Positions 36,154-64,000 of a stretch of 64,000 bases of DNA are shown piece after piece. Position numbers and translations under genes: made by a program. This stretch comes from a virus: IMG/VR virus record IMGVR_UViG_3300032053_000002, positions 108,752-172,751 of that record; one strand, given 5' to 3'. How positions within the stretch are numbered: position 1 is the stretch's first letter; each line of letters begins with the position of its first letter. Under the pieces are notes generated by a model. That model saw only the letters and a list, made by a program, of their open reading frames with translations. It was not told where the DNA came from and did not search any database.

Positions 36154-36951
36154 CTATTTTTGTTTTCCTACCCAAATATAAGTATCACCTTTGAATTTAA
36201 GAGTCTTATGCTCAGAAACTTCAAATTTTGTTTTTAATAAGTCTAATAAATAATACTTTCTATCACAATCATCTTTACTACGATTTTCAAAAATATTCAT
36301 AGTCAAATAAACGTTATTCGAATACGAAAGTATGGAATCGAAGAAAAACTTTGTAGCCGAAACATTCATTTCGGATAAACAATAATCACTGATAGTCAAA
36401 TAACTTTCTTTTTTTTCGACACTGTCAGACGAATTAAATATAACATTGTTTAAATTAAATTTACTCAGGTATTTTTTAGATAACTCTATTGCTTCAGGCA
36501 TATCAACCAATCTATACGAATTAAATTTGTATACGCAACTAGTTATTAGGCATTGACCACCATATGCAGAACCTATTTCGGTTATATCTTTATTATTTAA
36601 GTCGCCAAAATGTTTTCCTAAATCCCCAACAACTTTTATATAGCGCGTTGTATTTGGCGAAAATTTACCGAATTTTTCATATTCGTATATTGGAGGAGAA
36701 CCATGTATATCATTCTTTCTAAACTCGTCGAAGTGATTTATTAAATATGGATATTCTTTTTCAATATAGGTAAGGAATTGTTTTCCTCTTTCAATTCCAT
36801 GGCTATCACACCCAACAATTTGTATGTATTCTCGTAATCTTTTAAATGATGAAAATGTTTCTTCATTTACGGCGGCTTCCTTACAAATTTTTGTATATGG
36901 TTCTGCGAATCTTCGTTCAAGCATCCAATGTCCCTTTACTGTGATAGTCAT
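36154..36951 (-). CDS. putative SAM-dependent methyltransferase, 265 aa
   Basis: ITEIGSAYGGQ glycine-rich motif-I-like segment followed by acidic residue region (LVDMPEA). Confidence 0.4.
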   Translation of the reverse strand: MTITVKGHWMLERRFAEPYTKICKEAAVNEETFSSFKRLREYIQIVGCDSHGIERGKQFLTYIEKEYPYLINHFDEFRKNDIHGSPPIYEYEKFGKFSPNTTRYIKVVGDLGKHFGDLNNKDITEIGSAYGGQCLITSCVYKFNSYRLVDMPEAIELSKKYLSKFNLNNVIFNSSDSVEKKESYLTISDYCLSEMNVSATKFFFDSILSYSNNVYLTMNIFENRSKDDCDRKYYLLDLLKTKFEVSEHKTLKFKGDTYIWVGKQK

Positions 36952-36952
36952 T

Positions 36953-38566
36953 TTAATTATCCTTCTTTAATTTGCTTACTAAAAGTTTCAATTCATAAAA
37001 ATATAAAAAATCAATTTGAGTTTTTAAAAAACATTCGATGGCATCTTTTGGAGTTTCAACAATAGGCTCTCTATCGTTAAAACTGGTATTCAATATTAAA
37101 GGGATTCCGGTTTTTTCTTTCCATTTTTTTAAAAAATTATAATACCATTTATTGTCTTTTTCTGTTACGGTTTGTATTCTCGCCGAACCGTCTGCGTGAA
37201 CTACTGCCGGAACTTTGTTTTTCATATCTTCTTTAAATTTAACAACGATAGACATATATGGACTGTCTACATCTCTAACAAACCAATCTTCTACGTCTTC
37301 TCTCAAAATACTCGGAGCAAAAGGGCGAAACCACTGGCGATGTTTTACTTTTTCATTTACTTTATCTTTCATTTTTATGTCGCGAGGATCGGCAAGAATA
37401 CTTCTATTTCCCAGTGCTCTTCTTCCGGTTTCAGATTTTCCACCATATACGGAAATTATTTTTTGGTTATTCAATAAATCAATGGCTTCTTCATCATTTG
37501 AATTCCGTGATTCGATGTTGCTATATTGTTTAATAGATTTAAAAACGTCCGAATCAGGATAAGAATACCCCAAATACGGAGTGAAATTATCTTTCCAGAA
37601 TATTCGAGGATTGTTGTTGATATGATGCCAAAAGTATTGAGCGGAGCCGATGGCGCACCCAGAATCAGCTGGGGTTGGTGATACGTATATTCCGTCAACG
37701 TTGGGAAACCAATCATAAAGTTTCCCGACCATAACGGAATTAAGAGCCACCCCTCCGGCCAAGCATAAGAATGTTGGGTTGTATTTTTCAATATAGGGCG
37801 ACAATGTTTCTCGAATTAAAATTTCTGTATATTTTTGAAGCGCCGCGGCGACATCAAATTTATATTGCTCATTCTGCTGTATAAGTTCTCGAAGTGCTTC
37901 ACGCGATATAGGAATTTCTTGAGTTACATTTTTGAAAAATCTTTCCGGGTCTCCAAACGCAGACATTGCCATAACCGTTCCTTCCTGAGATCCAATCGGA
38001 TACCCGACAGACAACCCGAATACCTGACTCGTATATTTCTGCCATATCTCTCCGATATTTGGGTCTCCCTGAAATATTTTGATGGGGTATATTTTATTAT
38101 CCACACCTGCCCAAATAGTAAATCCGGAAACTTGTTTACAAATACCACCGTCTTCGCCATTATGAAATTCGTCGCCACCACCATCCATCGTAATAATTAA
38201 CGCATTTTTATAATTGGAAGAAAAAAACGCATTCGCTGCATGAGATTTATGATGCCCAATACCATAACTGGGATTAGTTCCCGGGTCTCCATAAAAGTTA
38301 GCTATTTTTTCAGCTTTTTCATACGTATCAGGGTATCGTTTTTTAATTCCGCCGTGCCATGTCATAACAGGATGAGTAAATGCGTTTATATCACTATAAT
38401 ATGGATATACATTAAACATGAATTCAATAGAATCGGAAACTTTCATCTTCTCTCGCGAAAATCTTTCCAACTCGTGATGAACGGTCGGTATTCCATTTTC
38501 TAATATTGCAAATGAGCAATCATGCCCGCTAAGAAGTCCGCATATTTTCATTTCTTTTATCTCCAT
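36953..38566 (-). CDS. carbamoyltransferase (NodU/CmcH family)
   Basis: 537 aa; N-terminal ICGLLSGHDCSFAILENG Kae1/YrdC-like fold start and HHxSHAANAFF motif typical of this family. Confidence 0.75.
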   Translation of the reverse strand: MEIKEMKICGLLSGHDCSFAILENGIPTVHHELERFSREKMKVSDSIEFMFNVYPYYSDINAFTHPVMTWHGGIKKRYPDTYEKAEKIANFYGDPGTNPSYGIGHHKSHAANAFFSSNYKNALIITMDGGGDEFHNGEDGGICKQVSGFTIWAGVDNKIYPIKIFQGDPNIGEIWQKYTSQVFGLSVGYPIGSQEGTVMAMSAFGDPERFFKNVTQEIPISREALRELIQQNEQYKFDVAAALQKYTEILIRETLSPYIEKYNPTFLCLAGGVALNSVMVGKLYDWFPNVDGIYVSPTPADSGCAIGSAQYFWHHINNNPRIFWKDNFTPYLGYSYPDSDVFKSIKQYSNIESRNSNDEEAIDLLNNQKIISVYGGKSETGRRALGNRSILADPRDIKMKDKVNEKVKHRQWFRPFAPSILREDVEDWFVRDVDSPYMSIVVKFKEDMKNKVPAVVHADGSARIQTVTEKDNKWYYNFLKKWKEKTGIPLILNTSFNDREPIVETPKDAIECFLKTQIDFLYFYELKLLVSKLKKDN

Positions 38567-39560
38567 TTATCATATAATATTTTTTCCAATATTCGATCAT
38601 TTCATCTAACATTTCTTCAAATGTTATTTCCGGTTTCCAACCCGTAGCATTTCTTAATTTGGTCGAGTCTCCCCGTAGTTCATTTAGTTCTTCAGGTCGT
38701 AAATATTTTTTATCAATTTTAACATAATTTTTCCAATCCAATCCTAAAGATGCAAATACATATTCGAGCAATTCCTTAACTGAATGAGATACACCGGTGG
38801 CACAAACAAAATCATCTGGACTATCTTGTTGTAAAATTAACCACATGGCTTTGGCATAATCTTTTGCGTGTCCCCAATCTCTTTTTGCATCAATATTTCC
38901 GAGGACTAACTCGTTTTCCAATCCAAGTTTTATTTCTGTAGCTCTCTTAACAATTTTATTAGTGACAAAATTAGTTCCTCGAACAGGCGATTCATGATTA
39001 AATAAAATTCCATTTGATGCGAATAATTTATATGAATGTCTATAATTTCTTGTAATATTATACGCAAATAATTTCGAGCATCCGTATGGACTTACTGGAT
39101 TTTTTGGCGTTGTTTCTCGCTGAAATCCATCACTATCAATATTGTTTCCAAACATTTCGCTTGAGCTCGCCTGATAAAATTTCGCGTTAGGAGTGATTAA
39201 TTTAATGGCTTCTAATAAGTTCAACGTTCCTATCGCATTCGTCTGTGACGTATAAATAGGTTGGTCGAAACTTATTCTAACATGAGATTGCGCCGCGAGA
39301 TTATAAATTTCGTCGGGCCGTGAATCTTGTAATACACGAATTAGCGAAGACATATCCGTCATGTCACCATAAACAAGTTCTAATTTTTTATGTAATTCTT
39401 TTTTAAACAGATCTTGTAATCTAGATGTTTGATTTTCGGCGACAGAATTTCTTTTTACTATTCCCCAGACTTTATAATTTTTTTCTAATAAGAATCTCGC
39501 TAAATAGCTTCCGTCCTGACCACCGGCACCAGTGAGGAACGCGACTTTTTTTATTCTCAT
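38529..39560 (-). CDS. gmd: GDP-mannose 4,6-dehydratase
   Basis: 343 aa; FLTGAGGQDGSYLARFLLEKNYKVWGIVKRNS N-terminus and YGCSKLFAY catalytic YxxxK are characteristic of GMD. Confidence 0.85.
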   Translation of the reverse strand: MRIKKVAFLTGAGGQDGSYLARFLLEKNYKVWGIVKRNSVAENQTSRLQDLFKKELHKKLELVYGDMTDMSSLIRVLQDSRPDEIYNLAAQSHVRISFDQPIYTSQTNAIGTLNLLEAIKLITPNAKFYQASSSEMFGNNIDSDGFQRETTPKNPVSPYGCSKLFAYNITRNYRHSYKLFASNGILFNHESPVRGTNFVTNKIVKRATEIKLGLENELVLGNIDAKRDWGHAKDYAKAMWLILQQDSPDDFVCATGVSHSVKELLEYVFASLGLDWKNYVKIDKKYLRPEELNELRGDSTKLRNATGWKPEITFEEMLDEMIEYWKKYYMINGDKRNENMRTS

Positions 39561-40771
39561 ACGGAAACTCCTTTATATCTATTTAATATATTACAGATAT
39601 ATTCAACGTCTTCGTCGTTCATTTCGGGATGATTGGGGACGTAAAATCCGAATTGGTCGGCTTTGTTGGCGTTATATAGTAATTTGTTTCCATATTTTTG
39701 AATGTACATCGGCTGAGTACCCATTGAACCGCATATCAGGGGTCTGGTTTCCACTCCGGCGTCAATTAAATCATACGTGATAGCGTATTTCATCGGATGA
39801 ATAACAGGATACGCGAAGTTTGAAACAAAAGTATCGTTTAATGGCTTGGGTTTCCATCCAGGCAAATTTGGAACGTTTTCTTTCCAGATAAGATTTTGAT
39901 ATGTATTAAAATTTTTATTTCTGATTTCAACATTTTTATTAAGTTTTTTGAGTTGTAGTAATCCAAGTTTAGCATTTAAATCGGTTGACCTTAAATTAAA
40001 TCCTGGATGATAAAAAGTCAGAAGCGCATCAAAATTATTTACATTCCAATGTTTTCTAAGTAGATTTCTTTTTTCTTCTGGCAAATCCCTGTCCCATCCA
40101 TGGCTTCGCAACATTAATAACATATGATATAAATCTTCGTCGTTTGTATTCACAAATCCGCCTTCAATGGTCGAAATATGATGTCCGAAATAAGTTGAAT
40201 ATGTGCTGGCGATACCAAAATTGCCTAAATGTTTACCATGATATTTTGTTCCCATTGATTCACAGTTATCCTCAATCAAATCGACATGGTATTGTTTAGA
40301 AATATTTACGAGCTTATCCATATTTGGCGAAAACCCAAGAACCGAAACAGAAATAACGGCGACTATATGGTTGTCGTTTTCTAAGATTGTGGCTAATTGA
40401 TCTAAATCAAGTGTTAAATCATCCATATTACAATCAACCAACACGGGCTTAAATCCAAGTTGTATAACCGGTGATAAGTCTGTCGCCCAAGAAATTGCGG
40501 GGACAACCACTCTAGCATTTCCGTCATAAAATTTTGCATACGCACTATTTTTACTTAATAAAGATAACGCGTACAATAAAAGAAGATTCGCGGACGAACC
40601 ACTATTTACAAACACCGAATATTTAGTTCCGATATATTTTGCCCATTCAGATTCAAGTTGAACAGTTAGTTCACCTTTGGTCAACCTCGGAAATGTTTTT
40701 AACCATTCAATTAATTCGTCAATATCTTGTTTGTCAATTGTATCATTTATTAATGCAATTTTTTTCATCAA
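39557..40771 (-). CDS. DegT/DnrJ/EryC1/StrS-family PLP-dependent sugar aminotransferase (GDP-perosamine-synthase-like)
   Basis: 404 aa; N-terminal LTKGELTVQLESEWAKYIGTKYSVFVNSGSSANLL pattern; genomic coupling with gmd. Confidence 0.8.
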   Translation of the reverse strand: MMKKIALINDTIDKQDIDELIEWLKTFPRLTKGELTVQLESEWAKYIGTKYSVFVNSGSSANLLLLYALSLLSKNSAYAKFYDGNARVVVPAISWATDLSPVIQLGFKPVLVDCNMDDLTLDLDQLATILENDNHIVAVISVSVLGFSPNMDKLVNISKQYHVDLIEDNCESMGTKYHGKHLGNFGIASTYSTYFGHHISTIEGGFVNTNDEDLYHMLLMLRSHGWDRDLPEEKRNLLRKHWNVNNFDALLTFYHPGFNLRSTDLNAKLGLLQLKKLNKNVEIRNKNFNTYQNLIWKENVPNLPGWKPKPLNDTFVSNFAYPVIHPMKYAITYDLIDAGVETRPLICGSMGTQPMYIQKYGNKLLYNANKADQFGFYVPNHPEMNDEDVEYICNILNRYKGVSV

Positions 40772-41471
40772 TAATCCCTTTCTTTTTCATATCATCAATT
40801 ATATCCTGTGATAATGTTCTGTTATCATTGATTAAATTAAAATTTAGAGGCAGGTCAAGTCTTCCTCGTCTTATAGCCTGACATGGTTGAATGACATAAT
40901 CTCTATATGTCGCCAATATTTTATATCCGTCATTTCTCGCGGCATTAGACCCGTATATTTCAAATTCCCATGGCGACCAACCGGGTAATATATATTTTAA
41001 TAAATATTTTCTATTCCATATCGACCACATTGCCGATAATCGGTAATCAACGTTGGGGCGATTAATTATAACATCAAATCCCACTTGCGAACTACAAAAA
41101 TCAAATGGTCGTAATTTACCATCATTCGTTAAACAAAATCTGCCCAACTCATCTGTTAGATAGTTTCCAATTATGTGATTATATATAAAAAAATTAACCG
41201 GTTGCATAATGAATTGATCTTCTGTTGCCCATACAAAAAATTCATCATCAATCGACTCAAAAAAAATTTTCAAATCCGTTGACCACATTTGTATTCCACC
41301 GGTTTGTTTTCCCATAGAAACAAATGTAAAATTACTCGGTAAATTAAATTCGGGCGCATCATACCCCAAAATGGTCACTGATGCGGTTGTACTCCAAAAC
41401 CTGTTAAACAAGTAAGAAAACACTTTTATTAAAGGCAAACATTGGTCGGCAGTTGAAATATAAATCTTCAT
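40743..41471 (-). CDS. hypothetical protein (possible glycosyltransferase), 242 aa
   Basis: ORF track; context. Confidence 0.45.
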   Translation of the reverse strand: MKIYISTADQCLPLIKVFSYLFNRFWSTTASVTILGYDAPEFNLPSNFTFVSMGKQTGGIQMWSTDLKIFFESIDDEFFVWATEDQFIMQPVNFFIYNHIIGNYLTDELGRFCLTNDGKLRPFDFCSSQVGFDVIINRPNVDYRLSAMWSIWNRKYLLKYILPGWSPWEFEIYGSNAARNDGYKILATYRDYVIQPCQAIRRGRLDLPLNFNLINDNRTLSQDIIDDMKKKGIIDEKNCINK

Positions 41472-42733
41472 TTATTAAGCACCATATTCCTTTCTTGAAT
41501 AAATTCTAATATTTCTTTTCTATGTTTTTTTAAATCTTCATTTGATAATTTATCATGCGTGAACACAAAATCTCTTTCATCTTCATCTTTATAGAGTCCG
41601 ACCGTAAATACATAATCACTAAAATTAAGTTGTTTTTTTAATTTAATATTATATTTTTCAGGATTGTTATAAATATCAGAACCTGGCAATGGGACAAACG
41701 TAGAAAGATCTACCGCGTCCGGATTGGTTTTTTTAATAAAATCAATCATATTTTTACTCACATCACTTTCCTGCCCCGGCAATCCTATCATTAAAAATGC
41801 TCTAATTTTAATTCCCGCTTCTTTTGTATTATGGATCGCTTCATAGATTTCACTAACATTAACCCCTTTATTATTTATATCTAAAACATTTTGAGAAACG
41901 TCTTCAATTCCAAAATCTAATTCATAACACCCAGCATCAAACATTTTTTTTAGAACGTCTTTTTCAGCAAAATCTATTCTTGTATTCGCTCTCCATTTGA
42001 TATTCAAATCTTTTATTGTATCGCAAAATTCAAATACCCACTTTTTGTTGGATGTTAAAGTATCATCTTGAAATCTAAATTGTTTTATATCGTATTTATT
42101 AATAATATCACGTATTTCTAGCGAAACATTTTCTGGGCTTCTATATCGCAATCTTCTTTTCCAGATGCTATTGATAGCACAGAAAGAACAGTTGAAAGGA
42201 CATCCACGAGACGCAATTATAGAAGTTGCGTCTTCTCCCCTTTCGCAAAGATATTTACTAATAAAAGAATCTTTTGGAAGAAGATGTCTAGCCGGAAAGG
42301 GCAAATCGCTTATATTTTTTATTAATTTCGCCTCGTATACATTTTTAAGATTGTTTTTTTCATAATCGTTTATCGCATCAATTGTAGATAACTCGCCTTC
42401 TCCAATTATTACAGAATCAAATATTTCATCAACTTTGGATGCGGTTCCATGCATTCCACCGAGAATTATTTTGCATCTATTATCTCTTCCTTTTAGCAAT
42501 TTCGCGAGTTTTAAAACGGTTGGATATTCCGGTGTAGTAGCCGTAATCCCATATATCTCATTTTGTGGCACAAAATTTAACCATCCACGTTCTTCAATAT
42601 TCCGTAAATCTATCATTTCTACCAAAAATCCGTTCGTTTCAAGATATGACGCAATATACATTATACCCAGAGACGGATTGCGTTTCTGGTCTCCTAAAAA
42701 TAGTGATGGTGGTATTATTAGAATTATTTTCAT
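41468..42733 (-). CDS. B12-binding-domain radical SAM enzyme
   Basis: 421 aa; N-terminal cobalamin-binding-like Rossmann segment then CPFNCSFC (CxxxCxxC) radical SAM cluster motif. Confidence 0.75.
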   Translation of the reverse strand: MKIILIIPPSLFLGDQKRNPSLGIMYIASYLETNGFLVEMIDLRNIEERGWLNFVPQNEIYGITATTPEYPTVLKLAKLLKGRDNRCKIILGGMHGTASKVDEIFDSVIIGEGELSTIDAINDYEKNNLKNVYEAKLIKNISDLPFPARHLLPKDSFISKYLCERGEDATSIIASRGCPFNCSFCAINSIWKRRLRYRSPENVSLEIRDIINKYDIKQFRFQDDTLTSNKKWVFEFCDTIKDLNIKWRANTRIDFAEKDVLKKMFDAGCYELDFGIEDVSQNVLDINNKGVNVSEIYEAIHNTKEAGIKIRAFLMIGLPGQESDVSKNMIDFIKKTNPDAVDLSTFVPLPGSDIYNNPEKYNIKLKKQLNFSDYVFTVGLYKDEDERDFVFTHDKLSNEDLKKHRKEILEFIQERNMVLNK

Positions 42734-42739
42734 AACGAA

Positions 42740-43123
42740 TTATTTTTTGTTGTTTTTTAAACGACCTTTATTTTCCTTACGATTTTTATATTTGTTTTCT
42801 TCATTTTTCATTTTTGTTTTTTTAATTTCAGAAAACTTTTCGAAATTTTCTTCTTGTTCGTCAAGTTCTTCAAAATCCTCGATTTCTCTAAGATTTATTT
42901 TAGGCATTTTAATTTTCTCCTCTAAGTTTTTCGTTAGGTCGTTTATGTTTAAATTGGAAGGTACTACTGATACTATTCCGAAATGATGCAATGATTTGAA
43001 GTTCCCCATCGCGAATTTTGTCGCCTCGAAAATGGAATAAGACATCACATCGCACAATTTTTGCGGTTGTGTATGTTCATTTTCCATATAAACCATGTAT
43101 GATTTTAATTGATTTTTTTTCAT
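42740..43123 (-). CDS. Lys/Glu-rich hypothetical protein, 127 aa
   Basis: ORF track; low complexity. Confidence 0.4.
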   Translation of the reverse strand: MKKNQLKSYMVYMENEHTQPQKLCDVMSYSIFEATKFAMGNFKSLHHFGIVSVVPSNLNINDLTKNLEEKIKMPKINLREIEDFEELDEQEENFEKFSEIKKTKMKNEENKYKNRKENKGRLKNNKK

Positions 43124-57510: not shown

Positions 57511-57514
57511 AATA

Positions 57515-57937
57515 TCACTCCCAACTTATTTCCCAATCTTTAAATTCTGCGGCTATACAATCTATTTTATAATCTTTTCTACCGCCAATTATATTTTGTA
57601 TTTTATTTTTCGCCGTGTTTCTGATACCATTCAGACCATGAGTTAATCCAAGATTTCCGTTTCCGGTACCCGCACGATATTCGGTTTCGTTATGCCAGAT
57701 ATGCAAGTTCATCTGCGACAAAACAACAATAGCACGAATGACATCTGCATTCATATCCGGATCATTTTCTGCTAATATCAAATCTATATCATGCATTATA
57801 TCCTTGATCTCTTGAGCATATTCTTCTTTGTGTTCTGGAATAAAAACTTCTTTCAGTTGTATAATGGATAATCTATCTATCAATTCTGCAAATGTGGGAA
57901 GATAACGTCTTCCATTATTTTCTATGCCCATTTTCAT
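57515..57937 (-). CDS. hypothetical protein, 140 aa
   Basis: ORF track. Confidence 0.45.
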   Translation of the reverse strand: MKMGIENNGRRYLPTFAELIDRLSIIQLKEVFIPEHKEEYAQEIKDIMHDIDLILAENDPDMNADVIRAIVVLSQMNLHIWHNETEYRAGTGNGNLGLTHGLNGIRNTAKNKIQNIIGGRKDYKIDCIAAEFKDWEISWE

Positions 57938-58682
57938 TTCTCCACTTTATAAGTTTCTGAATGTCTTCTTCTATTCTCTGTTTACCTTCCCCGTGATCTA
58001 ACCAGTACTTAGCAGGGACTTTTACTTTTGTAGAATATCCTCCAGCACCATCGTCGGGTAATCCAAAAATTAATTTTTTCGCTCCACCATCATCATAATA
58101 ATCCATTTCGCCTTTTCCTCTTTGTAAGTGGAGCATTTTCATATTAGCATTTAATGGAAGAATACCCGCGCCAATTCCCACCAATTTTAAATAGCCATCC
58201 GTTGCTCTACTTCCACTAACCCTTCCAATGATTTCGTACCATTTTCTATTTATTCCAACAAAAGTCGGAGTCCCCTTCCAAATTTCGTTTAGCGGAACGC
58301 TCGCAATCCAAAATGGCTGCCCTTTGACCGGAGCAACAGCGTTTCTAAGATTGGTATCCCACCCCCCTTCTATACAAATTAGATCGTCGTTAAAAATAAA
58401 TAAACATTCTCCGGTAAACAATTCTCCCGCCTTATTTTGGTATTGTTCTAATTCCCCGTACCCGTATCGTTTGTCCATAACAAAACAAAACAATTGCGCA
58501 TCATTCGCATAACACATTGGCGAAATTTTAGTCAACGCGTCTTCGGTTTCCTTATCGTCGGGGTCTAATGCAAAAAAATACTCGATATTTTTATTATCAT
58601 CCGCATTTTGAATAAATGACGAAAGAGAATATACCAATTCGTGCGAACGTTTTCTTGTTATCCACACCACACTAATTTTCAT
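57915..58682 (-). CDS. hypothetical protein (possible GT-A glycosyltransferase, DPDD), 255 aa
   Basis: ORF track. Confidence 0.45.
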   Translation of the reverse strand: MKISVVWITRKRSHELVYSLSSFIQNADDNKNIEYFFALDPDDKETEDALTKISPMCYANDAQLFCFVMDKRYGYGELEQYQNKAGELFTGECLFIFNDDLICIEGGWDTNLRNAVAPVKGQPFWIASVPLNEIWKGTPTFVGINRKWYEIIGRVSGSRATDGYLKLVGIGAGILPLNANMKMLHLQRGKGEMDYYDDGGAKKLIFGLPDDGAGGYSTKVKVPAKYWLDHGEGKQRIEEDIQKLIKWRNENGHRK

Positions 58683-58683
58683 T

Positions 58684-59721
58684 TTATCTCCAATATTGAT
58701 ATAATCCTTTTTCTATTTCGTAGTTTTCCCATTTATATACTGGGCGATTTGGTTGTATTTTGGCCCACTCCCACATTTTTTCCAACCCCTCTTTCAATCC
58801 AATCTTATGTTCGAACCCGAGAAAATCAATAGATTTTTGATAAGTCGAAAACGCATTTTGAACTTCGTGACGACACTCAAGAAATTTCATTTCACCTTTA
58901 CCGGCAACATCAATTAAAGTTTTAGCCGCATCAAGAATAGTAATTGACTCAAATCCTCCAAGATTTATAATTTCATCAGTCGATTTTTTGTCGATAGCAT
59001 TCCACAAAGGTTCTAAAATATCGTCGACAAAAGTGAATGCTCGGCGTTGTTCACCGTTACCGTATATAGAAATCGGTTCATTATTTAAAATTTGTCTTAC
59101 CCAAATTCCGAGAACATTCCGATATTTATCCCATATATTTTGGTTAATACCATAAACATTATGAGGGCGAATAATCGTATACTCTAACCCATGTTGGGCG
59201 TACGCCACTTGTAAGTCTAATTCACACGCAAGTTTTGAAATGCCGTACGGGTCGATTGGTTTTGGAACATCACGCTCATCAAATGGCACTTCGCCGTGTC
59301 CATATACAGCTAAAGAAGATGTGAAAATAAACTTCTTAACGTTATATTTAATCGCCATATTGATCAATCGTACTGTCGCAATTAAATTTGTTTCATAATT
59401 AAAGTGCCGTATAAATGGCGACAATCCTTCGGCAGCATATGCGGCGAAATGATATACATAATCAATTTTATGGTTTATAAAGATATTTTCAACATTGTCG
59501 TGAACCAGATTCATTTTTTGAAAATAAACACCCTGAGGAATATGTTCCAAATATCCGCCGCTTAAATCATCGATTCCGATAATCATAACATCTTTTTTAT
59601 TTTCAAGAACCCAGTGACAAAATCGCGACCCGATCATTCCTGCGCATCCCGTTACTAAAATTATCATGTACTTCTCCTTAAATTTATAATACACCTCTCC
59701 AATATTCCAGCAAATCATCAC
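58684..59721 (-). CDS. NAD-dependent epimerase/dehydratase (extended SDR)
   Basis: 345 aa; ILVTGCAGMIGSRF; YGISKLACE (YxxxK). Confidence 0.75.
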   Translation of the reverse strand: MMICWNIGEVYYKFKEKYMIILVTGCAGMIGSRFCHWVLENKKDVMIIGIDDLSGGYLEHIPQGVYFQKMNLVHDNVENIFINHKIDYVYHFAAYAAEGLSPFIRHFNYETNLIATVRLINMAIKYNVKKFIFTSSLAVYGHGEVPFDERDVPKPIDPYGISKLACELDLQVAYAQHGLEYTIIRPHNVYGINQNIWDKYRNVLGIWVRQILNNEPISIYGNGEQRRAFTFVDDILEPLWNAIDKKSTDEIINLGGFESITILDAAKTLIDVAGKGEMKFLECRHEVQNAFSTYQKSIDFLGFEHKIGLKEGLEKMWEWAKIQPNRPVYKWENYEIEKGLYQYWR

Positions 59722-60673
59722 AGATATGAGTTAAACTCTTTTTAGGTTTCCAACCAAACTCATTTCTAAACTTTGAGCTGTCGGGAATCTGTAAAGTAAT
59801 ATCAGTTGGTCTAATTCTGTCGGGATTTAGTTGTTTGTAAAAAGCGTCTGGATATTTAGACATGGAAATTAGCATATCTAAAGCATCGCCAACAGTACAA
59901 GTATAATCCCCTCCGATATTGTATACTTCGCCAAACTTTTTTGCAGAAGAACATAACCAATATGCTTCAACCGCATCTTCAATATGATTATACGTCCTAA
60001 CGGAGTTTAAGTTCCCGTGCTCTATTGAATATAATCCGATTGGAAAATCTTTTGATTTTTCATGCGCGACTATTTGATGCGCAAAAGAAGATAGTGCGAA
60101 TTGTTTGCTGCGTCTTGCTCCCTCGTGACTAAACATTCTCGTAATAATAACCTTCATGCCATACGCCGAATGATAATATTGTGACATCAAATCATGCCCG
60201 ACTTTGGAAATTGAATAAGGATTCGCCGCTCGAATCGGATTTTTTTCTGTAATCGGAACTTCGTCTTTGGTAGGATTTCCATAGACTTCAGAAGAAGATA
60301 CACTAACTATTATTGGATTACACCATCCCGCTTCTTTAAAGTTTTTTAGTTCTTCCATAAGATTTGTCGTACCAAGCACATTTGTTGTCAAAGTCATTAT
60401 CGGAGTTAAGAAACTCGTTTCAGGAAAACTTTGCGCGGCAAAATGATAAACAATATCTGGTAAAGATGCTTTAATAGCTCTAAATAAACTTCCTCTGTCT
60501 GTTAAGTCGGCTTCGAGAAACTTTACTCTCATATCAGAATAGAAATGTTTTATATTATCATCTCTACTTCTCCATCGTCTTATCGCATATATTTGTATAT
60601 TTTCTTTTTTCAGAAGATAGTCCACCATGTGACTACCGACAAATCCCGTGCAACCTGTAAGTAAAACTTTCAT
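59684..60673 (-). CDS. NAD-dependent epimerase/dehydratase (extended SDR)
   Basis: 329 aa; MKVLLTGCTGFVGSHM; YSISKVGHD. Confidence 0.75.
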   Translation of the reverse strand: MKVLLTGCTGFVGSHMVDYLLKKENIQIYAIRRWRSRDDNIKHFYSDMRVKFLEADLTDRGSLFRAIKASLPDIVYHFAAQSFPETSFLTPIMTLTTNVLGTTNLMEELKNFKEAGWCNPIIVSVSSSEVYGNPTKDEVPITEKNPIRAANPYSISKVGHDLMSQYYHSAYGMKVIITRMFSHEGARRSKQFALSSFAHQIVAHEKSKDFPIGLYSIEHGNLNSVRTYNHIEDAVEAYWLCSSAKKFGEVYNIGGDYTCTVGDALDMLISMSKYPDAFYKQLNPDRIRPTDITLQIPDSSKFRNEFGWKPKKSLTHICDDLLEYWRGVL

Positions 60674-60873
60674 AAACTTTCTCCCGTTTTTATATCATAT
60701 ACCGGCAACTTGCTCGTATGTTTTTTCTCATACGCATAAATAAACGCGGACGAACTTTTGCGATATATATTCTGCGAACGACAATTTGGGCATTCAATAA
60801 AAGATTCATAATCCGTATCAACCCATTGTGTATCGCAATCTTCACACCACATTTCTTCAACATTTGTATTCAT
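60670..60873 (-). CDS. zinc-ribbon protein, 67 aa
   Basis: CEDCDTQ...CPNCRSQ. Confidence 0.45.
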   Translation of the reverse strand: MNTNVEEMWCEDCDTQWVDTDYESFIECPNCRSQNIYRKSSSAFIYAYEKKHTSKLPVYDIKTGESL

Positions 60874-61819
60874 TTTTATACCATTTCAGAGTTTTCTTTA
60901 TTCCTTCGTCTATACCGGTTTTCGCCGACCAGCCTAATAAATCTTTCGCCTTTGAGCAATCTAAATATAAAGATGTTGGAATTGTTGGTTTTGATAGATC
61001 ATGCGTTACCTTTAATTGTTTCCCAGAGTGTTGAATTATTTTATTTACCAGGTCTATTATTTTAACAGCTTTACCCACCCCAACATTAAATAGTTCATAA
61101 TTAGATTTTTGGTTTTCTAGCGACAAATCTATAAAATCTATTAAATCGTCTACATATAATAAATCTCTCGCCTCTTCACCGGTTCCCCAAACAACCAACT
61201 CTCCAGTTTTATTTGTCATTACTTTAGTAATTGTGGCGCCGAAAACATGGCTTTTTTCTAAATCATATTTATCGTACGGCCCGTACACATTCGAATGGCG
61301 AATTACTGTATGTTTGGTTCTTCCCAACCTCGAATAAAACTCACACATTTTTTCAATATAAACTTTTGTATTGCCTACACCAAAATAAGTTTTGTATATC
61401 TCGTCGTTACCGTTAAAATCCGTTTCCTTTAATGCTTTATCAGATGGTTGATACATAACAGTGCAACTTGGAAATATAATATGTTCTATCTTTTGTTCGT
61501 AGCATTCTCTTAAAATATAACTATTCATGACCGCATTATCAGTAACGTGAACGTATGGTTGATTGACTATATCGTTAGCACCAGACGTTGTTGCGGCGAA
61601 CTGAAGTACAATATCAACATCTTTCAGTGCGTCTTTAACATCTACGGGATTTCTCAAATCGCACCAAACCCATTCAGCATTTCGATATTCTCTCGCCAAA
61701 AATAATGACCACACGGAAAGAAATGGTATTCTAATTTTGTATTTTCCACTTTTGTAATAATGATTTAATAAATTTCTGCCTATAAAACCAGATGCTCCGC
61801 AAATTAAAATTCTTTTCAT
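60857..61819 (-). CDS. NAD-dependent epimerase/reductase, GDP-fucose-synthase-like
   Basis: 320 aa; MKRILICGASGFIGRNL; SNVYGPYDKYDLEKSHV. Confidence 0.7.
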   Translation of the reverse strand: MKRILICGASGFIGRNLLNHYYKSGKYKIRIPFLSVWSLFLAREYRNAEWVWCDLRNPVDVKDALKDVDIVLQFAATTSGANDIVNQPYVHVTDNAVMNSYILRECYEQKIEHIIFPSCTVMYQPSDKALKETDFNGNDEIYKTYFGVGNTKVYIEKMCEFYSRLGRTKHTVIRHSNVYGPYDKYDLEKSHVFGATITKVMTNKTGELVVWGTGEEARDLLYVDDLIDFIDLSLENQKSNYELFNVGVGKAVKIIDLVNKIIQHSGKQLKVTHDLSKPTIPTSLYLDCSKAKDLLGWSAKTGIDEGIKKTLKWYKNEYKC

Positions 61820-61820
61820 T

Positions 61821-62006
61821 TTAACCCCTTCTCATTAAAAATCGTTTTGACACGATTGCTACAATTGCCAATGTTAATGTTATTAAAAAAGAAATACTCA
61901 TAACGTATATTATTGAATGAGTACCTTTTCCAGATAAGCAAACCAGAAAATAGTATACCCACGTTCCGACCACAACAAGAGTAAAATTTTTCCAACTCGG
62001 TTTCAT
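61821..62006 (-). CDS. small membrane protein, 61 aa
   Basis: ORF track. Confidence 0.4.
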   Translation of the reverse strand: MKPSWKNFTLVVVGTWVYYFLVCLSGKGTHSIIYVMSISFLITLTLAIVAIVSKRFLMRRG

Positions 62007-62009
62007 TTT

Positions 62010-62783
62010 TTAACTTCCTCCCAAATAATCATCAATTGCTTGCCATGATGTTTTTCCTGTATAAATTGGATTTGGAAATGTTTCTGGAGTAATATATGTA
62101 AAGTCGCCAAATTCAACATCGAAACCATAGTGATATTTAATATCTTTCAATTTAACATTTCCCGTAGTAACAAAATCATAAATTCCCTGTAAATCGTAAC
62201 ATTGTTCGCTCATAAAAAATTTCAAAAGATAATCATAGCAAACATAATTAAAGGTCGATTCTTCAGATAAAGTTATTTTTTCTCCTATAATCATTTTCGT
62301 GAAATGATTTTCTCTCATTCCTTTGCCAATTAATGCTGAACATCTCAATATCAATGAATTTGGGTATTGTTTAACAATCGATTCGGTGAATCTTTTAAAC
62401 ATACTGTAAAGATTTTCTTGTAAAGCGAACCAATATACATCAATAGATGAAATATAAATAAACTTACCATACTTCATGTTTAGCAATCTTTGGGTTAGTA
62501 AAATGTTATCATCGATATATTTGTAGTAGTCAGTTATTTTTTTTTCCTTATTGAAAGCACAATGAATAACAGTATCATATTCTTTATTTTTTATGTCGTC
62601 AAAATTATGTCTATTCAATCCAACAGAGTTATTTAAATTTTCATATAAATATTTACCTAGACCGCTACCAACACCTGTAATCAAATATTTCTTTATCATT
62701 TTAATTTCCTTTCTTTTGGTAAGAAAGGGTACGCTCCAATTTTCCACCATATAAACACCGCTATTAAAAATAGAGAAATCCAA
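62010..62783 (-). CDS. Rossmann-fold NAD(P)-binding protein (SDR-like), 257 aa
   Basis: ITGVGSGLGKYL glycine-rich loop. Confidence 0.5.
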   Translation of the reverse strand: MDFSIFNSGVYMVENWSVPFLTKRKEIKMIKKYLITGVGSGLGKYLYENLNNSVGLNRHNFDDIKNKEYDTVIHCAFNKEKKITDYYKYIDDNILLTQRLLNMKYGKFIYISSIDVYWFALQENLYSMFKRFTESIVKQYPNSLILRCSALIGKGMRENHFTKMIIGEKITLSEESTFNYVCYDYLLKFFMSEQCYDLQGIYDFVTTGNVKLKDIKYHYGFDVEFGDFTYITPETFPNPIYTGKTSWQAIDDYLGGS

Positions 62784-62807
62784 AACACTAAAAATACAAT
62801 ATTCATA

Positions 62808-63803
62808 TTATTTAACTCCCTTCTTAAAAGCATTATATCTTTTATCAACAATATCTTTATTTTCTAAATACCATTTTATTGTATCTTTTATGCCTTCTTC
62901 AATTGAAATAAATGGCTCGAATCCATATGAACGAATGCGACCTGTATCGAATAGTCTTTCTAAATCTCCGGTAGGCTTGTCGCTCAACCATTTTATCGGT
63001 TTGTTAAATTCTTTCGCCACAATCTCGGCGACTTCCTTAATCGCTACCCCAAATCCACTTCCCAGATTAACTGGTTGAGTTATACCGCTTTCAACTGCTA
63101 ATATCATTCCCCTGGCGACATCATCGGCGTGTATAAAATCTCTAATGGGGCTTCCGTCTCCCCAAACTTCCAACATATCATTTTCATCGGCTTTTCGTAT
63201 TAGTGAAGGTATAACCATAGCATTTTCTGGATCGAAGTTATCATATCGCCCATAAACATTCGCGGGTCTGACAATAGATACTTTATTCCAATTATATTGT
63301 ATGGAATATGCTTCCGCTTGTAACTCTCCCATCCGTTTCGCCCAACCTGCAAACCTATCATTAGGCGATGGAAATGTTTTCCACACATCGTCTTCTCTAA
63401 ATAACTTAGCAGGAGAATACACACCAACAGAACTTGTATACAGATACCATTCTACATCTGCAAGTCTCGCCGCTTCCATCATGTTTGTGTTGAATTGCAG
63501 CATGGGAACAAAAAAACTTGCGGGTTGTTCCGCACACATTTTCGGAGAACCTTTTACGCCAACTAAATTAAATACGTAATCCATTCTTTCGCAAATAGCG
63601 CGGCAATCTTCAAAATTTCTTAAATCGGCATAAACGTATACGGCATCCAACCCTTCAGGATATGTCAAATCCGCCACTTCCACATCCGCTCCGCAAATCT
63701 TTAACCTCTCGACCAATGAGCGGCCTATCATTCCACTACCACCAGTAACTAAAACTTTTTTATTTTCTAAATTATTTTGTAGCATAACATTCTCCATACT
63801 CAA
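62808..63803 (-). CDS. GDP-L-fucose synthase-like NAD-dependent epimerase/reductase
   Basis: 331 aa; KVLVTGGSGMIGRSL; ANVYGRYDNFDPENAMVIPSLIRK. Confidence 0.75.
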   Translation of the reverse strand: MSMENVMLQNNLENKKVLVTGGSGMIGRSLVERLKICGADVEVADLTYPEGLDAVYVYADLRNFEDCRAICERMDYVFNLVGVKGSPKMCAEQPASFFVPMLQFNTNMMEAARLADVEWYLYTSSVGVYSPAKLFREDDVWKTFPSPNDRFAGWAKRMGELQAEAYSIQYNWNKVSIVRPANVYGRYDNFDPENAMVIPSLIRKADENDMLEVWGDGSPIRDFIHADDVARGMILAVESGITQPVNLGSGFGVAIKEVAEIVAKEFNKPIKWLSDKPTGDLERLFDTGRIRSYGFEPFISIEEGIKDTIKWYLENKDIVDKRYNAFKKGVK

Positions 63804-64000
63804 TTAATAATGTTGATATAAAATCATTTCTATTATATGCAAATTCAAATGCTGGAAATATCTGTTCAGCTGAATTTAATATTACTATATTAATTTCGTT
63901 TAACATATGTACGAACGCGGAAGTATGATTCTGGGTATGTTGAACTCCGGCGTCTAACGGTGTTTTCGACCCGACCGAAGTTCGTATAATAACTCTTGGC
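63772..64000 (-). CDS. partial CDS (C-terminal ~75 aa; gene continues beyond window end)
   Basis: Open frame ...RVIIRTSVGSKTPLDAGVQHTQNHTSAFVHMLNEINIVILNSAEQIFPAFEFAYNRNDFISTLLIEYGECYATK ending TAA at 63772-63774, overlapping the next gene start. Confidence 0.4.
   Translation of the reverse strand, partial: PRVIIRTSVGSKTPLDAGVQHTQNHTSAFVHMLNEINIVILNSAEQIFPAFEFAYNRNDFISTLLIEYGECYATK

Follow-up and report, generated by a model that had tools for sequence, protein, structure and literature searches.

Layout of the sugar island

The DNA considered here is a window of 64,000 nucleotides from the genome of an uncultured large aquatic phage (IMG/VR record IMGVR_UViG_3300032053_000002, positions 108,752 to 172,751), in which the open reading frame (ORF) calls form a contiguous minus-strand gene array at 36154-63803, with a further gene crossing the window end. 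This array is very probably an island for nucleotide-sugar synthesis and glycosyltransfer: at least 22 of its genes, within 28 kb, received sugar-related assignments. Thirty-three non-overlapping minus-strand ORFs of at least 80 aa lie within 36154-63803, many of them with overlapping stop and start codons, and four small ORFs fill the 'gaps' between them; up to the window end, no ORF of that length accepted as a gene lies on the plus strand. An earlier reading of the letters of this DNA (hereafter the original prediction) had described a single-strand sugar module of about 28 kb, and such a module is real. It is not purely a sugar module, being interrupted by a NUMOD3 endonuclease, a DUF5662 protein, a vWA protein and several ORFans.

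The C-terminal part of another gene product is encoded in the final 229 bases, so that the island extends past base 64000. An exact-match scan of JGI contigs for the sequence beyond gave nothing, and about 1.1 kb upstream of that point was taken from a 98%-identical fragment (L170). At least three further genes stand 5' of the window end (Logan contig and the 98%-identical JGI fragment): those for two thiamine-diphosphate (ThDP) enzyme subunits and an ORF with an 'RFGDGD' motif. The latter (L170 105-395), which precedes the gene of the thiamine-enzyme alpha subunit, is reminiscent of GT-D (DUF1792) glycosyltransferases and suggests that further transferases of the island may lie beyond base 64000. 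In an independent ENA assembly (k141_1483895, or L029; a contig of 168,695 bp, about 99% identical) the genes are in the order of the window from 49.6 kb, within the island, down to about 28.5 kb, including the junction at 36 kb between the island and a region of small ORFs; the arrangement is therefore not an assembly artefact. By coordinate mapping, with colinearity assumed, that contig ends at window position ~2900. The protein cluster of the thiamine-enzyme beta subunit (P0241) lists a contig of 292,723 bp, and the genome may be that of a jumbo phage, the window itself stemming from a different assembly.

A GDP-mannose hub with a ColD-type dehydratase

The genes that bear on the use of GDP-mannose are the following:

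38529-39560, minus strand: GDP-mannose 4,6-dehydratase (GMD; TIGR01472, 417.6 bits for a cut-off of 415; Pfam GDP_Man_Dehyd, 411 bits)
39557-40771, minus strand: ColD-type, pyridoxamine phosphate-dependent GDP-4-keto-6-deoxymannose 3-dehydratase (DegT family, Pfam 205 bits)
56593-57510, minus strand: GDP-L-fucose synthase (3,5-epimerase/4-reductase; 198 bits to the human enzyme)

The GMD named in the original prediction passes the equivalog cut-off of its family. Its neighbour had been taken for a DegT-type aminotransferase of a GDP-perosamine-like branch: the family assignment stands, the proposed function does not. Among solved relatives the best match was ColD (2gms, from E. coli) with 207.8 bits, followed by E1, a CDP-sugar 3-dehydrase (3bcx, 116 bits), PseC (2fn6, 99 bits) and perosamine synthase (3bn1, 97 bits). 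The catalytic His188 of ColD, which replaces the Schiff-base lysine, lies in the stretch 'YSHHIATMEGG' and is aligned with 'FGHHISTIEGG' of the window protein, the column having been located by means of the H188N mutant entry 3b8x. This column discriminates: in the viral DegT homologues fetched, 17 proteins carry His (the window protein, 15 homologues from viral contigs and gp211 of cyanophage ACG-2014f) and nine, of lower identity, carry Lys. A perosamine-type aminotransferase was ruled out by the His at the Schiff-base position together with the best match to ColD. The signature predicts a 3,6-dideoxyhexose (colitose-type) branch rather than perosamine, the enzyme being predicted to 3-deoxygenate GDP-4-keto-6-deoxymannose. 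The capacity for amino sugars once ascribed to the module is unsupported, since the sole DegT-family enzyme carries the His of the ColD/E1 3-dehydratases.

For the fucose synthase, the three catalytic stretches (SxC, YxxxK and His) are kept: 'SVCSFPD', 'YGYAKRM' and 'TSHF' align with the human enzyme. Its score with the NCBIfam Fcl model, 205.6 bits, is below the cut-off of 500.

The reading frames of ColD and GMD overlap, and the carbamoyltransferase described below belongs to the same run of overlaps. In three related viral contigs (L087, L108 and L114) the gene order is Fcl-like, ColD, GMD, which by homology is the complete enzyme set for GDP-colitose. The resemblance to the bacterial GDP-colitose pathway (GMD, ColD, ColC) thus extends from the GMD equivalog score, the ColD best match and the conserved catalytic His to the presence of Fcl-type reductases in the window and the order of the three genes in related viral loci. 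The difference is that the window has several Fcl-like paralogues as candidates for ColC, colitose being a predicted product only. No literature match linking colitose with a phage was found.

According to homology and motif tests, GMD would convert host GDP-mannose into GDP-4-keto-6-deoxymannose; no mannose-1-phosphate guanylyltransferase or phosphomannomutase was seen in the window. From this hub, one branch would pass through GDP-L-fucose synthase. The other would pass through the ColD-type 3-dehydratase to GDP-3,6-dideoxy-4-ketohexose, which an Fcl-like reductase could turn into a colitose-type sugar.

Other epimerases, dehydratases and reductases

Further members of the short-chain dehydrogenase/reductase (SDR) family were identified:

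48781-49704, minus strand: PseB/FlaA1-type UDP-HexNAc 4,6-dehydratase-family enzyme (Polysacc_synt_2, 187 bits; PseB model, 176.6 bits, below cut-off)
58684-59721, minus strand: GalE-like nucleoside diphosphate (NDP)-sugar 4-epimerase (Epimerase, 158 bits; Thermotoga maritima UDP-glucose 4-epimerase 4zrm, 169 bits)
59684-60673, minus strand: GDP-sugar 4,6-dehydratase/reductase-like SDR, paralogue of GMD (GDP_Man_Dehyd, 228 bits)
60857-61819, minus strand: generic SDR epimerase/reductase (Epimerase, 129 bits)
62010-62783, minus strand: short SDR-like reductase (weak Epimerase match; phrog_540, 'nucleotide-sugar epimerase')
62808-63803, minus strand: Fcl-like SDR of the NDP-4-keto-6-deoxyhexose epimerase/reductase family (Epimerase, 147 bits)

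With the fucose synthase, this makes seven SDR-family proteins (those at 48781, 56593, 58684, 59684, 60857, 62010 and 62808), in agreement with the four NAD-dependent epimerase/dehydratases claimed beyond GMD and the Fcl-like enzymes, the latter being included in the seven. Three GDP-fucose-synthase-like reductases had also been announced: 56593-57510 is clearly one, 62808-63803 is moderately Fcl-like (148.6 bits with the GDP-L-fucose synthase model, below its cut-off, and 117 bits with E. coli GMER), and 60857-61819 is a generic SDR whose best solved relatives are UDP-GlcA and UDP-Glc 4-epimerases (~82 bits), with E. coli GMER at ~71 bits.

The PseB-type protein scored 129.5 bits with H. pylori FlaA1 (2gn4), the 'STDKA' and 'YGSTK' (YGxTK) stretches being aligned, and it would open a UDP-HexNAc 6-deoxy branch; none of its potential partners PseC, PseH, PseG, PseI and PseF was found. 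The GMD paralogue at 59684-60673, 28% identical to the window GMD, has as best solved relative the GDP-D-glycero-D-manno-heptose 4,6-dehydratase of C. jejuni (7us5, 221 bits), and next the GDP-6-deoxy-D-lyxo-4-hexulose reductase 2pk3 (172 bits). The start of 62010-62783 is probably near 62699, giving a protein of ~229 aa with a TGxGSGLG motif.

A thiamine-enzyme cassette at the window end

The gene that crosses the window end is:

63772-64000, minus strand: C-terminal 76 codons of an E1-beta-like ThDP enzyme subunit of 178 aa (Transket_pyr); the in-frame translation stops at 63772

It is identical to positions 437-973 of contig L028, the product of which carries PF02779, and its best solved relatives are the Pyr domains of the E1 beta subunits of pyruvate/2-oxoacid dehydrogenases. 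There are 3772 homologues, with 425 JGI contigs and 34 IMG/VR loci, and some of them were named 'pyruvate/2-oxoglutarate/acetoin dehydrogenase E1 component' by JGI. The alpha subunit (230 aa in L170, also present in L028) lies beyond the window end and has a ThDP-binding GD-x26-EDNG motif (GDM...EDNG; IGDMTYETGIFHESHKYSKNFNLPIQFVVEDNG). A split E1-like enzyme, that is, an alpha subunit with a motif of the GDG-x(25-30)-N kind and a beta subunit with the Pyr domain, was thus recognized.

In the 34 IMG/VR loci the cassette has the order alpha, beta, [DegT], then homologues of 62808, 62010, 60857 and 59684. The 62808 homologues (up to 73% identical) are 3' of the thiamine genes in 30 of the 34 loci, the 62010 homologues (up to 52%) occupy the matching position in 20 and the 60857 homologues (up to 70%) belong to 29 cassette loci, while identity reaches 73% for the viral homologues of 59684. 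Twenty-four DegT genes were found in the 34 loci: all 24 are of the His type, and 22 are directly 3' of the beta gene.

The combination of a split E1-like thiamine enzyme, three SDRs and a GDP-sugar 4,6-dehydratase suggests a C-branched deoxysugar. A 3,6-dideoxyhexose with an acetyl or hydroxyethyl branch at C-4 requires a 4,6-dehydratase, a 3-dehydratase, an E1-type thiamine enzyme and ketoreductases, and may therefore be the product; the thiamine enzyme would add the two-carbon (acetyl/hydroxyethyl) branch to a 4-keto-deoxysugar, as has been proposed for AviB1/AviB2 and demonstrated for YerE. What weakens this proposal is that the window cassette is without an embedded 3-dehydratase, the only such enzyme being 23 kb away beside GMD. 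Yersiniose and paulomycose are examples of branched sugars: YerE installs the branch, and AviB1/AviB2 and Pau11/Pau12 are proposed to do so, from pyruvate (PMC4753412). Like these systems, the viral two-subunit E1-type enzyme adjoins a 4,6-dehydratase and ketoreductases, and a His-type 3-dehydratase is directly beside the thiamine genes in 22 of the 34 related viral loci. The viral subunits differ in being much shorter (~230 and 178 aa) and in having no transketolase C-terminal domain. A split transketolase feeding a heptose pathway was also considered and dropped: the beta subunit resembles E1 beta and not the transketolase halves of other contigs.

Six glycosyltransferases and a conserved core

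Six glycosyltransferases (GTs), all predicted to be soluble, were assigned: one GT-B, two GT2 (one of them two-domain), two GT8-like and one candidate GT-A.

43835-45034, minus strand: two-domain GT2 of 399 aa, hereafter GT2-399 (Glycos_transf_2, 49.6 bits; Glyco_transf_7C, E 9e-4)
46779-47615, minus strand: GT2 glycosyltransferase (Glycos_transf_2, 51.2 bits)
47813-48790, minus strand: putative GT-B-fold (GT4-like) glycosyltransferase of 325 aa (AlphaFold model, pLDDT 85.5, pTM 0.84)
52051-52863, minus strand: GT8-like glycosyltransferase, paralogue of the C-terminal half of 53556-54917 (BLASTP, 30% identity over 194 aa, E 4e-20)
53556-54917, minus strand: fusion of an N-terminal S-adenosylmethionine (SAM)-dependent methyltransferase and a C-terminal GT8-like glycosyltransferase (Methyltransf_24, 36.9 bits; Glyco_transf_8, E 1e-3)
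57915-58682, minus strand: candidate GT-A glycosyltransferase (phrog_14945 'glycosyltransferase', E 7.9e-7; weak GT2 match, E 0.15)

The two GT2 proteins are over the Pfam thresholds, so the minimum of two given in the original prediction holds. In the fusion protein, Methyltransf_24 covers residues 47-143 and Glyco_transf_8 residues 261-402; its homologues are at most 58% identical. An N-terminal beta-strand and an 'FNDD' motif are visible in the sequence of the candidate GT-A.

The protein of 47813-48790 had no Pfam or PHROG match. Its model points to a GT4-like GT-B glycosyltransferase: the top Foldseek matches were the GT4 enzymes BA1558, BshA, Gtf3, SenB, PglA and PimA (E ~1e-9, TM-score 0.6-0.69, probability 1.0). 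A PseG-like hydrolase of the pseudaminic acid pathway was rejected, as there are no PseC, PseH, PseI or PseF partners and the best folds are GT4 transferases. In a collection of 5.8 billion proteins the gene has 3,739 homologues, most of them ~55-58% identical and of equal length; at least 145 IMG/VR viral contigs, of up to 191 kb, carry one, and none was found in GenBank phage records.

For GT2-399 the model (pLDDT 88.3) has an N-terminal GT-A domain and a C-terminal alpha/beta domain. Foldseek matched it to heparosan and chondroitin synthases and polypeptide GalNAc-transferases (E 1e-13 to 1e-10), and also to multi-domain transferases of giant viruses. Its family counts at least 7,649 homologues, with 42% identity to gp169 of Flavobacterium phage immuto.

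Neighbourhoods were counted in 80 viral loci fetched around the GT-B gene. A GT2-399 homologue is present in 68 of them, usually after the GT-B gene, and a PseB-type dehydratase in 37, commonly directly upstream of it; the 10-bp overlap of the PseB and GT-B genes in the window is repeated in metagenome contigs L034-L036 and L049-L052. GT8-like genes of the 52051 and 53556 types occur in 46 and 45 loci, respectively, and GMD in 31. Relative to the arrangement in most of its relatives, the window contains an insert of about 8 kb (methyltransferase, radical SAM, ColD, GMD and carbamoyltransferase genes) that separates GT2-399 from the HNH-like gene bounding the island, and about 3 kb more (GT2, vWA protein and ORFans) between the two core transferases. 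With such cassettes inserted around the GT-B/GT2-399 pair, the island reads as a mosaic around a conserved core.

Relatives of the GT-B gene also turned up on short contigs of metagenome-assembled genomes (MAGs; GTDB, L037-L048) ascribed to Marinimicrobia, Pelagibacter, Nisaea, Pacearchaeota, Flavobacteriales, Gammaproteobacteria and Nitrosopelagicus. Could the island then be cellular DNA, e.g. the O-antigen or capsule locus of a low-GC bacterium, mis-assembled or mistaken for phage? Apart from these bacterial and archaeal bins, the data speak for a virus. Such short contigs, spread over at least eight unrelated bacterial or archaeal lineages, we read as viral DNA mis-binned into MAGs. Island genes are found on IMG/VR contigs of up to 191 kb, in a cultured Flavobacterium phage of 160 kb and on a phage-like contig of 309 kb. 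Strand, GC content and gene packing do not change between the island and a region of tRNAs, metallopeptidase, HNH, NUMOD3 and PHROG families, and the ENA assembly repeats the order across the 36-kb junction. A cellular origin is in our view scarcely credible.

Tailoring enzymes

Genes for enzymes that could decorate the sugars are:

36953-38566, minus strand: NodU/CmcH-family carbamoyltransferase (Carbam_trans_C, 215 bits; Carbam_trans_N, 70.9 bits)
41468-42733, minus strand: class-B (B12-binding) radical SAM enzyme (Radical_SAM, 76.5 bits; B12-binding, 45.9 bits; 'CPFNCSFC' motif)
43407-43832, minus strand: small SAM-dependent methyltransferase (Methyltransf_23, 43.3 bits)

The carbamoyltransferase and the B12-binding radical SAM enzyme, both listed in the original prediction, have their two respective domains above the Pfam cut-offs. 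At least four SAM methyltransferases had been announced as well; only two domains reach the Pfam thresholds, namely 43407-43832 and the N-terminal part of 53556-54917. The carbamoyltransferase is below the NodU equivalog (137.5 bits for a cut-off of 1000); homologues ~31% identical to it are present in 136 phage records, mostly of cyanophages and pelagiphages. For the radical SAM enzyme the best NCBIfam models are B12-radical-SAM methylases, all below cut-off, and in L002 and L010-L012, which are viral loci, its homologues have genes for sugar SDRs as neighbours; it is probably a C-methyltransferase or another radical tailoring enzyme. Together, the carbamoyltransferase, the two SAM methyltransferases and the radical SAM enzyme would tailor the sugars by O-carbamoylation and O- or C-methylation.

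Such enzymes raise the question of a soluble or secreted glycoside (antibiotic-like or signalling), or of a free exopolysaccharide, made during infection. TobZ/NodU-type carbamoyltransferases, B12-radical-SAM methylases and AviB1/AviB2-like enzymes are best known from the tailoring of antibiotic sugars (PMC4753412), the small-molecule glycosylators BshA and SenB are among the top fold matches of the GT-B protein, and the two-domain GT2 resembles glycosaminoglycan synthases. But the island has no aglycone enzymes (polyketide synthase, non-ribosomal peptide synthetase or cyclitol synthesis) and no exporter, and the likeness to polysaccharide synthases comes with a low TM-score (~0.4) and a poor superposition (root-mean-square deviation of 12-19 Å). 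We regard this explanation as improbable.

Export genes and early-type promoters are absent

Hydropathy was analysed for the 33 ORFs of at least 80 aa: none has more than two transmembrane-like segments, and just two small proteins have two each, which leaves no flippase, polymerase, ligase or phosphoglycosyl transferase. By Pfam and hydropathy, the island contains no priming/phosphoglycosyl transferase, flippase (Wzx), polymerase (Wzy), ligase or ABC exporter, confirming that no Wzx/Wzy-type gene is recognizable.

The island had also been said to be free of early-type promoters. The motif TTGACT-N16-18-TATATT has 13 exact copies in the window (0.08 expected by chance), all on the minus (coding) strand and all in the adjacent 35 kb (368-35239, about one per 2.7 kb); there are zero copies in the island. 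The 13 copies look like a phage early-promoter set for the host sigma-70. That the island is without the motif suggests that it is not part of the early programme.

What might be glycosylated

The picture that emerges is that of a mosaic phage glycan factory with enzymes predicted to be soluble, in which at least six transferases would assemble the sugars stepwise inside the infected cell. The order of these steps, and the targets of the carbamoyl and methyl groups, are likewise conjectural, and the weakest step is the acceptor, for which we would propose the phage's own virion proteins. Sequence by itself does not separate virion glycosylation, remodelling of the host envelope and DNA hypermodification, the DNA role being the least supported.

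We tentatively favour, at somewhat less than an even chance, a glycan coat on the virion proteins, like those of giant viruses and mycobacteriophages. Three considerations lead to it: the island is a cytoplasmic glycan-building set without genes for lipid priming, flipping, polymerizing or ligating; it lies outside the repeated host-type promoter block; and several rare sugars presumably exceed what simple masking of a receptor would need. In line with an intracellular acceptor, enzymes that modify proteins are among those resembled by the core transferases: the O-glycosyltransferases Gtf3, GtfC and GtfA and the polypeptide GalNAc-transferases. The methyltransferase-GT8 fusion resembles A064R, a fusion of glycosyltransferase and methyltransferase in chlorovirus PBCV-1.

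Several observations weigh on the other side. The 64-kb window contains no structural gene that could link the island to the capsid or tail. Enzymes with lipid-linked or small acceptors (PglA, PimA and BshA) and polysaccharide synthases are just as much among the fold matches. GT8 enzymes, colitose, fucose and sugars of the 6-deoxyheptose type are classic components of lipopolysaccharide (LPS) and capsule. Conservation of the core transferases at 55-62% across phage lineages suits a universal lipid-linked acceptor at least as well, and a late timing of the island would be deduced solely from the absence of a motif. Finally, analogous islands of pelagimyophages and cyanophages have been interpreted as modifying the O-chain or surface of the host (PMC7029224, PMC12801897).

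In that case the phage sugars and peripheral transferases would act on undecaprenyl-linked O-antigen, capsule or core intermediates of the host, the host flippase and ligase would see to export, and the altered surface would block superinfection or the adsorption of progeny to infected cells and debris. This is the reading given for the LPS-rich, hypervariable 'host recognition cluster' of pelagimyophages, in which GT8 is commonest (PMC7029224), and for the 22 cell-wall genes of cyanophage S-SCSM2R (PMC12801897). The window fits it by its two GT8-like enzymes, by predicted sugars typical of O-antigens (the closest solved ColD is from E. coli and the closest dehydratase from C. jejuni), by PglA and PimA among the GT-B fold matches and by the conservation of its core transferases just mentioned. 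However, the island brings none of the priming transferase, flippase, polymerase, ligase and ABC exporter, and the host Wzx, Wzy and WaaL would presumably have to tolerate several new rare sugars. Exclusion functions are usually expressed early, whereas the island is without the promoter motif of the neighbouring small-ORF region. No supporting experiment was found in the literature for any marine phage. Envelope remodelling is the chief alternative to virion glycosylation and a possibility to be kept in mind, if on the unlikely side.

Hypermodification of DNA, one of the roles entertained in the original prediction, would put the sugars onto hydroxymethylated or otherwise activated bases of the phage DNA, which would thereby evade restriction. 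Phage glycosyltransferases do decorate DNA with diverse glycans (Pyle et al. 2024, as cited in PMC12619734). Yet neither the glycosyl-DNA transferase nor the deoxynucleoside monophosphate (dNMP) kinase that the original prediction proposed to look for was present among the scanned ORFs of the 64-kb window. The same holds for a dCMP/dUMP hydroxymethylase and a thymidylate-synthase homologue: only an NT5C-type nucleotidase turned up. Moreover, the transferases are of GT2, GT4-like and GT8 types, and more than 20 genes for several deoxysugars would presumably be unprecedented for DNA decoration. We consider this role very improbable.

Glycosylation of virion proteins can be carried one step further: aquatic tailed phages might widely coat their virions with self-made, hypervariable glycans, built around the two conserved and as yet unclassified core transferases, GT-B (325 aa) and GT2 (399 aa), and including virus-specific rare sugars of the colitose type and with a two-carbon branch at C-4 (through a minimal split E1-type enzyme). 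They would then have a counterpart of the fibril glycosylation of giant viruses, of which the window would be among the largest examples. Stated so broadly, the proposal is doubtful.

Other genes of the island and its surroundings

Twenty ORFs, mostly those left unassigned by Pfam, were searched with PHROG profiles; useful matches were those of 57915, 62010, the vWA protein, the DUF5662 protein, the methyltransferase domain and the HNH-like gene. A relaxed Pfam search (E up to 5) on ten ORFs of unknown function gave weak hints only (DUF4254, DUF6165 and GT2). The remaining features of the island are:

36154-36951, minus strand: last gene of the island, 265 aa (no family match; glycine-rich motif 'EIGSAYGGQ')
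40743-41471, minus strand: 242-aa protein (no family match; 29-35% identical homologues in a few viral islands)
42740-43123, minus strand: 127-aa ORF (no Pfam or PHROG match)
43120-43410, minus strand: 96-aa protein with two transmembrane-like segments (hydropathy)
45031-45267, minus strand: 78-aa Cys-rich ORF (translation; also a gene call on the ENA contig)
45260-45607, minus strand: 115-aa ORF (no Pfam or PHROG match)
45610-46335, minus strand: vWA-domain protein (VWA, 25.4 bits; phrog_7371, 211.7 bits)
46484-46810, minus strand: 108-aa ORF (weak DivIVA match, E 0.006, far below cut-off; no PHROG match)
47566-47751, minus strand: 61-aa ORF, possibly ribbon-helix-helix as read by eye (also a gene call on the ENA contig)
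49694-50083, minus strand: DUF4254/DUF6165-like small protein, second copy (weak DUF6165 match; aligns with the 57515 family)
50080-51108, minus strand: conserved 342-aa protein with a 'WxETDS' motif (homologues in 31 of the 80 loci)
51110-51877, minus strand: NUMOD3 homing endonuclease, a selfish insertion (NUMOD3, 61.7 bits)
52851-53306, minus strand: DUF5662 protein, not evidently sugar-related (128 bits; phrog_20637)
53284-53559, minus strand: 91-aa protein with two transmembrane-like segments (hydropathy)
54914-55672, minus strand: 252-aa protein (no family match; 49-50% identical homologues in L053 and L120)
55783-56568, minus strand: ORFan of 261 aa (no Pfam or PHROG match, no homologue in the fetched loci)
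57515-57937, minus strand: DUF4254/DUF6165-like small helical protein (weak DUF4254 match)
60670-60873, minus strand: 67-aa zinc-ribbon-like ORF, CxxC...CxxC (translation)
61821-62006, minus strand: 61-aa hydrophobic ORF with two transmembrane segments read by eye (translation)

From its glycine-rich motif, 36154-36951 is a possible methyltransferase. Two vWA/Zn-ribbon proteins had been expected: one vWA protein was found, and otherwise just two small Cys-rich ORFs. The 57515 and 49694 proteins (~130-140 aa) are paralogues and among the most conserved families of viral sugar islands; the 57515 family, up to 77% identical, is present in 21 of the 34 cassette loci and 12 of the 80 GT-B loci. A profile of this small helical family had no match among PDB sequences. 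The 50080 family likewise gave none when its profile was compared with PDB sequences and, by hhalign, with the GT2 family; 50080-51108 is a candidate transferase.

Nearly all genes of the window are on the minus strand, and its GC content is 31-37% outside the stretch from 14 to 26 kb and 38-42% within it. The surroundings are phage-like, with five tRNAs, a phage metallopeptidase, HNH and NUMOD3 endonucleases and PHROG families. The following features stand outside the island:

2742-4244, minus strand: hybrid sensor histidine kinase, 500 aa (PAS, HisKA, HATPase_c and receiver domains)
16422-18674: 750-aa partner of the AAA_5 ATPase (in the segment of 38-42% GC)
18853-20160: AAA_5 (MoxR/CobS-like) ATPase (in the same segment)
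35289-35819, minus strand: HNH-endonuclease-like gene, at the downstream boundary of the island (phrog_14736, phrog_10822)

Homologues of the HNH-like gene are 3' of the core transferases in 30 of the 80 viral loci and in phage immuto (36% identity). Among the small ORFs 3' of the island are those for an SPFH/Band_7 protein (31463-32533), a DUF2958 protein (34535-34897) and the NT5C-type 5'-nucleotidase (4645-5322), all on the minus strand. Four tRNA-Ser genes in a row (GGA, CGA, TGA and GCT) and one tRNA-His are located at 985-2107 and 23754-23828 (minus strand); the sensor kinase adjoins the tRNA cluster and the metallopeptidase (2214-2684). The segment at ~14000-26000 stands out by its GC content (38-42%, versus 31-35% around it). 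Its ATPase and 750-aa partner have close matches (33-45% identity) only in Microcystis phage Mel-JY01 and in LR756508, an uncultured phage of 484 kb. ORFs 14032-14727 and 15057-15374 are the only sizeable plus-strand ones that do not overlap a larger minus-strand ORF.

Significance of the island

Islands of this kind are widespread in aquatic phages and have been described before; the present one is unusually large. Its value lies less in its existence than in specific, testable pathway predictions and in large uncharacterized viral families. Four of its features were not found described for phages: a ColD-type dehydratase beside GMD, a cobalamin radical SAM enzyme, an E1-type thiamine cassette and an unclassified GT-B family. 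Several of its 'unknown' genes belong to viral families of 3,700 to more than 7,600 homologues that are missing from Pfam, PHROGs or GenBank phage records. It offers a chemically explicit example, with fucose, colitose-type, HexNAc-deoxy and probably branched-sugar routes, carbamoyl and methyl tailoring and six transferases, and two conserved cassettes, Fcl-ColD-GMD and that of the thiamine enzyme, are open to direct in vitro work. For twenty years sugar islands have been noted in marine phages, but to our knowledge none has had its function demonstrated. With the virion as acceptor, the particles of aquatic phages would be coated with variable glycans, a matter of consequence for their adsorption, grazing and aggregation and for their recognition by host defences. 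With the host envelope as acceptor, this would be the most elaborate known reprogramming of a host surface by a phage without a lysogeny gene in the 64 kb examined. As immuto and ACG-2014f are cultured and carry parts of the system, the question is experimentally approachable.

Comparison with known systems

As far as could be tested, the window belongs to none of the cyanophage, pelagimyophage and moraphage lineages. The 24 kb of the island searched by megablast had no nucleotide match in 50,697 phage records, and when two non-island proteins of the window were used to search IMG/VR for close phage relatives, one gave a distant match and the other none. No T4-like core, tail-fibre or photosynthesis gene was recognized in the 64-kb window. 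The highest identities are ~60% for the core transferases versus viral contigs, up to 77% for some cassette genes and at most 42% with any cultured phage.

The island had been judged to hold far more sugar chemistry than phages normally carry. Its size bears this out, as at least 22 genes match or exceed the largest set that we found described, the 22 cell-wall genes of S-SCSM2R, 13 of them for glycosyltransferases, which its authors considered perhaps the highest number in a marine phage (PMC12801897). Its rarity is another matter: similar islands are present in cyanomyophages and pelagimyophages (PMC7029224), and core homologues in at least 145 IMG/VR contigs and thousands of metagenome proteins. 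Four core glycosyltransferase families have been described for the 'Moraphages' (PMC12619734).

Cyanomyophages (P-SSM2, S-SCSM1, S-SCSM2R and ACG-2014f) are similar in being large aquatic myophages with clusters of GMD-like, SDR, DegT, methyltransferase and glycosyltransferase genes. In ACG-2014f the block spans 13 genes and ~10 kb, with two nucleotide-sugar epimerases (one annotated as GMD in sister records), DegT, glycosyltransferase, methyltransferase and glycosyltransferase genes; its DegT protein is of the His type, as in the window, and carbamoyltransferase homologues are common in cyanomyophages. Identity to the window is nevertheless ~28-38%, and the window island is about three times longer and adds the B12-radical-SAM enzyme, the E1-like thiamine enzyme, the PseB-type dehydratase and the GT-B/GT2-399 pair. 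GT2-399 had no full-length match in any cyanomyophage.

The 'host recognition cluster' of pelagimyophages is likewise a large hypervariable region (mean 44.6 kb) of AT-rich marine myophages in which genes for deoxysugar enzymes and for glycosyltransferases, above all GT8, abound (PMC7029224). Its function is a hypothesis there (PMC7029224), and it is defined by its position between VrlC and gp14 and by tail-fibre genes, none of which was recognized in the 64-kb window. With HTVC008M the sole match seen was the carbamoyltransferase (31% identity).

Flavobacterium phage vB_FspM_immuto (NC_055915) shares GT2-399 (42%, full length) and the downstream HNH-like gene, and has a distant GT-B homologue annotated as a mannosyltransferase, in an island of ~11 kb with glycosyltransferases, aminotransferases, a methyltransferase and an epimerase. 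That island is smaller, and its annotated stretch has no GMD, ColD, carbamoyltransferase, radical SAM or thiamine enzyme. In the 81 kb of immuto compared, including 50 kb beyond the island region, there was no clear match to a further window gene. That the window phage is a relative of Immutovirus was rejected, only the GT2 and the HNH-like gene matching clearly and the other SDR and DegT matches being weak.

Related viral islands (L034/L036, JGI marine, and L141) hold other sugar chemistry, absent from the window: sulfotransferases with APS kinase, UDP-glucose dehydrogenase, and SIS_2 with a split transketolase and a nucleotidyltransferase (heptose-type). In L141, read by eye, one ORF has an N-terminus like that of a sugar-1-phosphate nucleotidyltransferase and another a Cys-rich N-terminus, possibly of a sugar C-methyltransferase. 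The repertoire accessible to such islands by combination would thus be very large.

Outside the marine phages, mycobacteriophage glycosylation operons consist of few genes, use the nucleotide sugars of the host and have their glycosyltransferase and methyltransferase genes near structural genes; the window differs by its at least 22 genes, with complete deoxysugar pathways. Giant viruses (chlorovirus PBCV-1, Mimivirus and Megavirus) have their own GMD and fucose-synthase enzymes and soluble glycosyltransferases and methyltransferases, some of them fused, and do without host export. The window resembles them by its GMD, fucose synthase, soluble glycosyltransferases and methyltransferase fusion and by the fold of GT2-399, which matches giant-virus transferases. 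They differ in being viruses of eukaryotes with no demonstrated orthology, while the window phage is known from its genes alone. That phages too can glycosylate their own particles is documented in mycobacteriophages, where phage glycosyltransferase and methyltransferase genes act and glycans are carried on the C-termini of capsid and tail-tube subunits (Freeman et al. 2023, as cited in PMC12619734).

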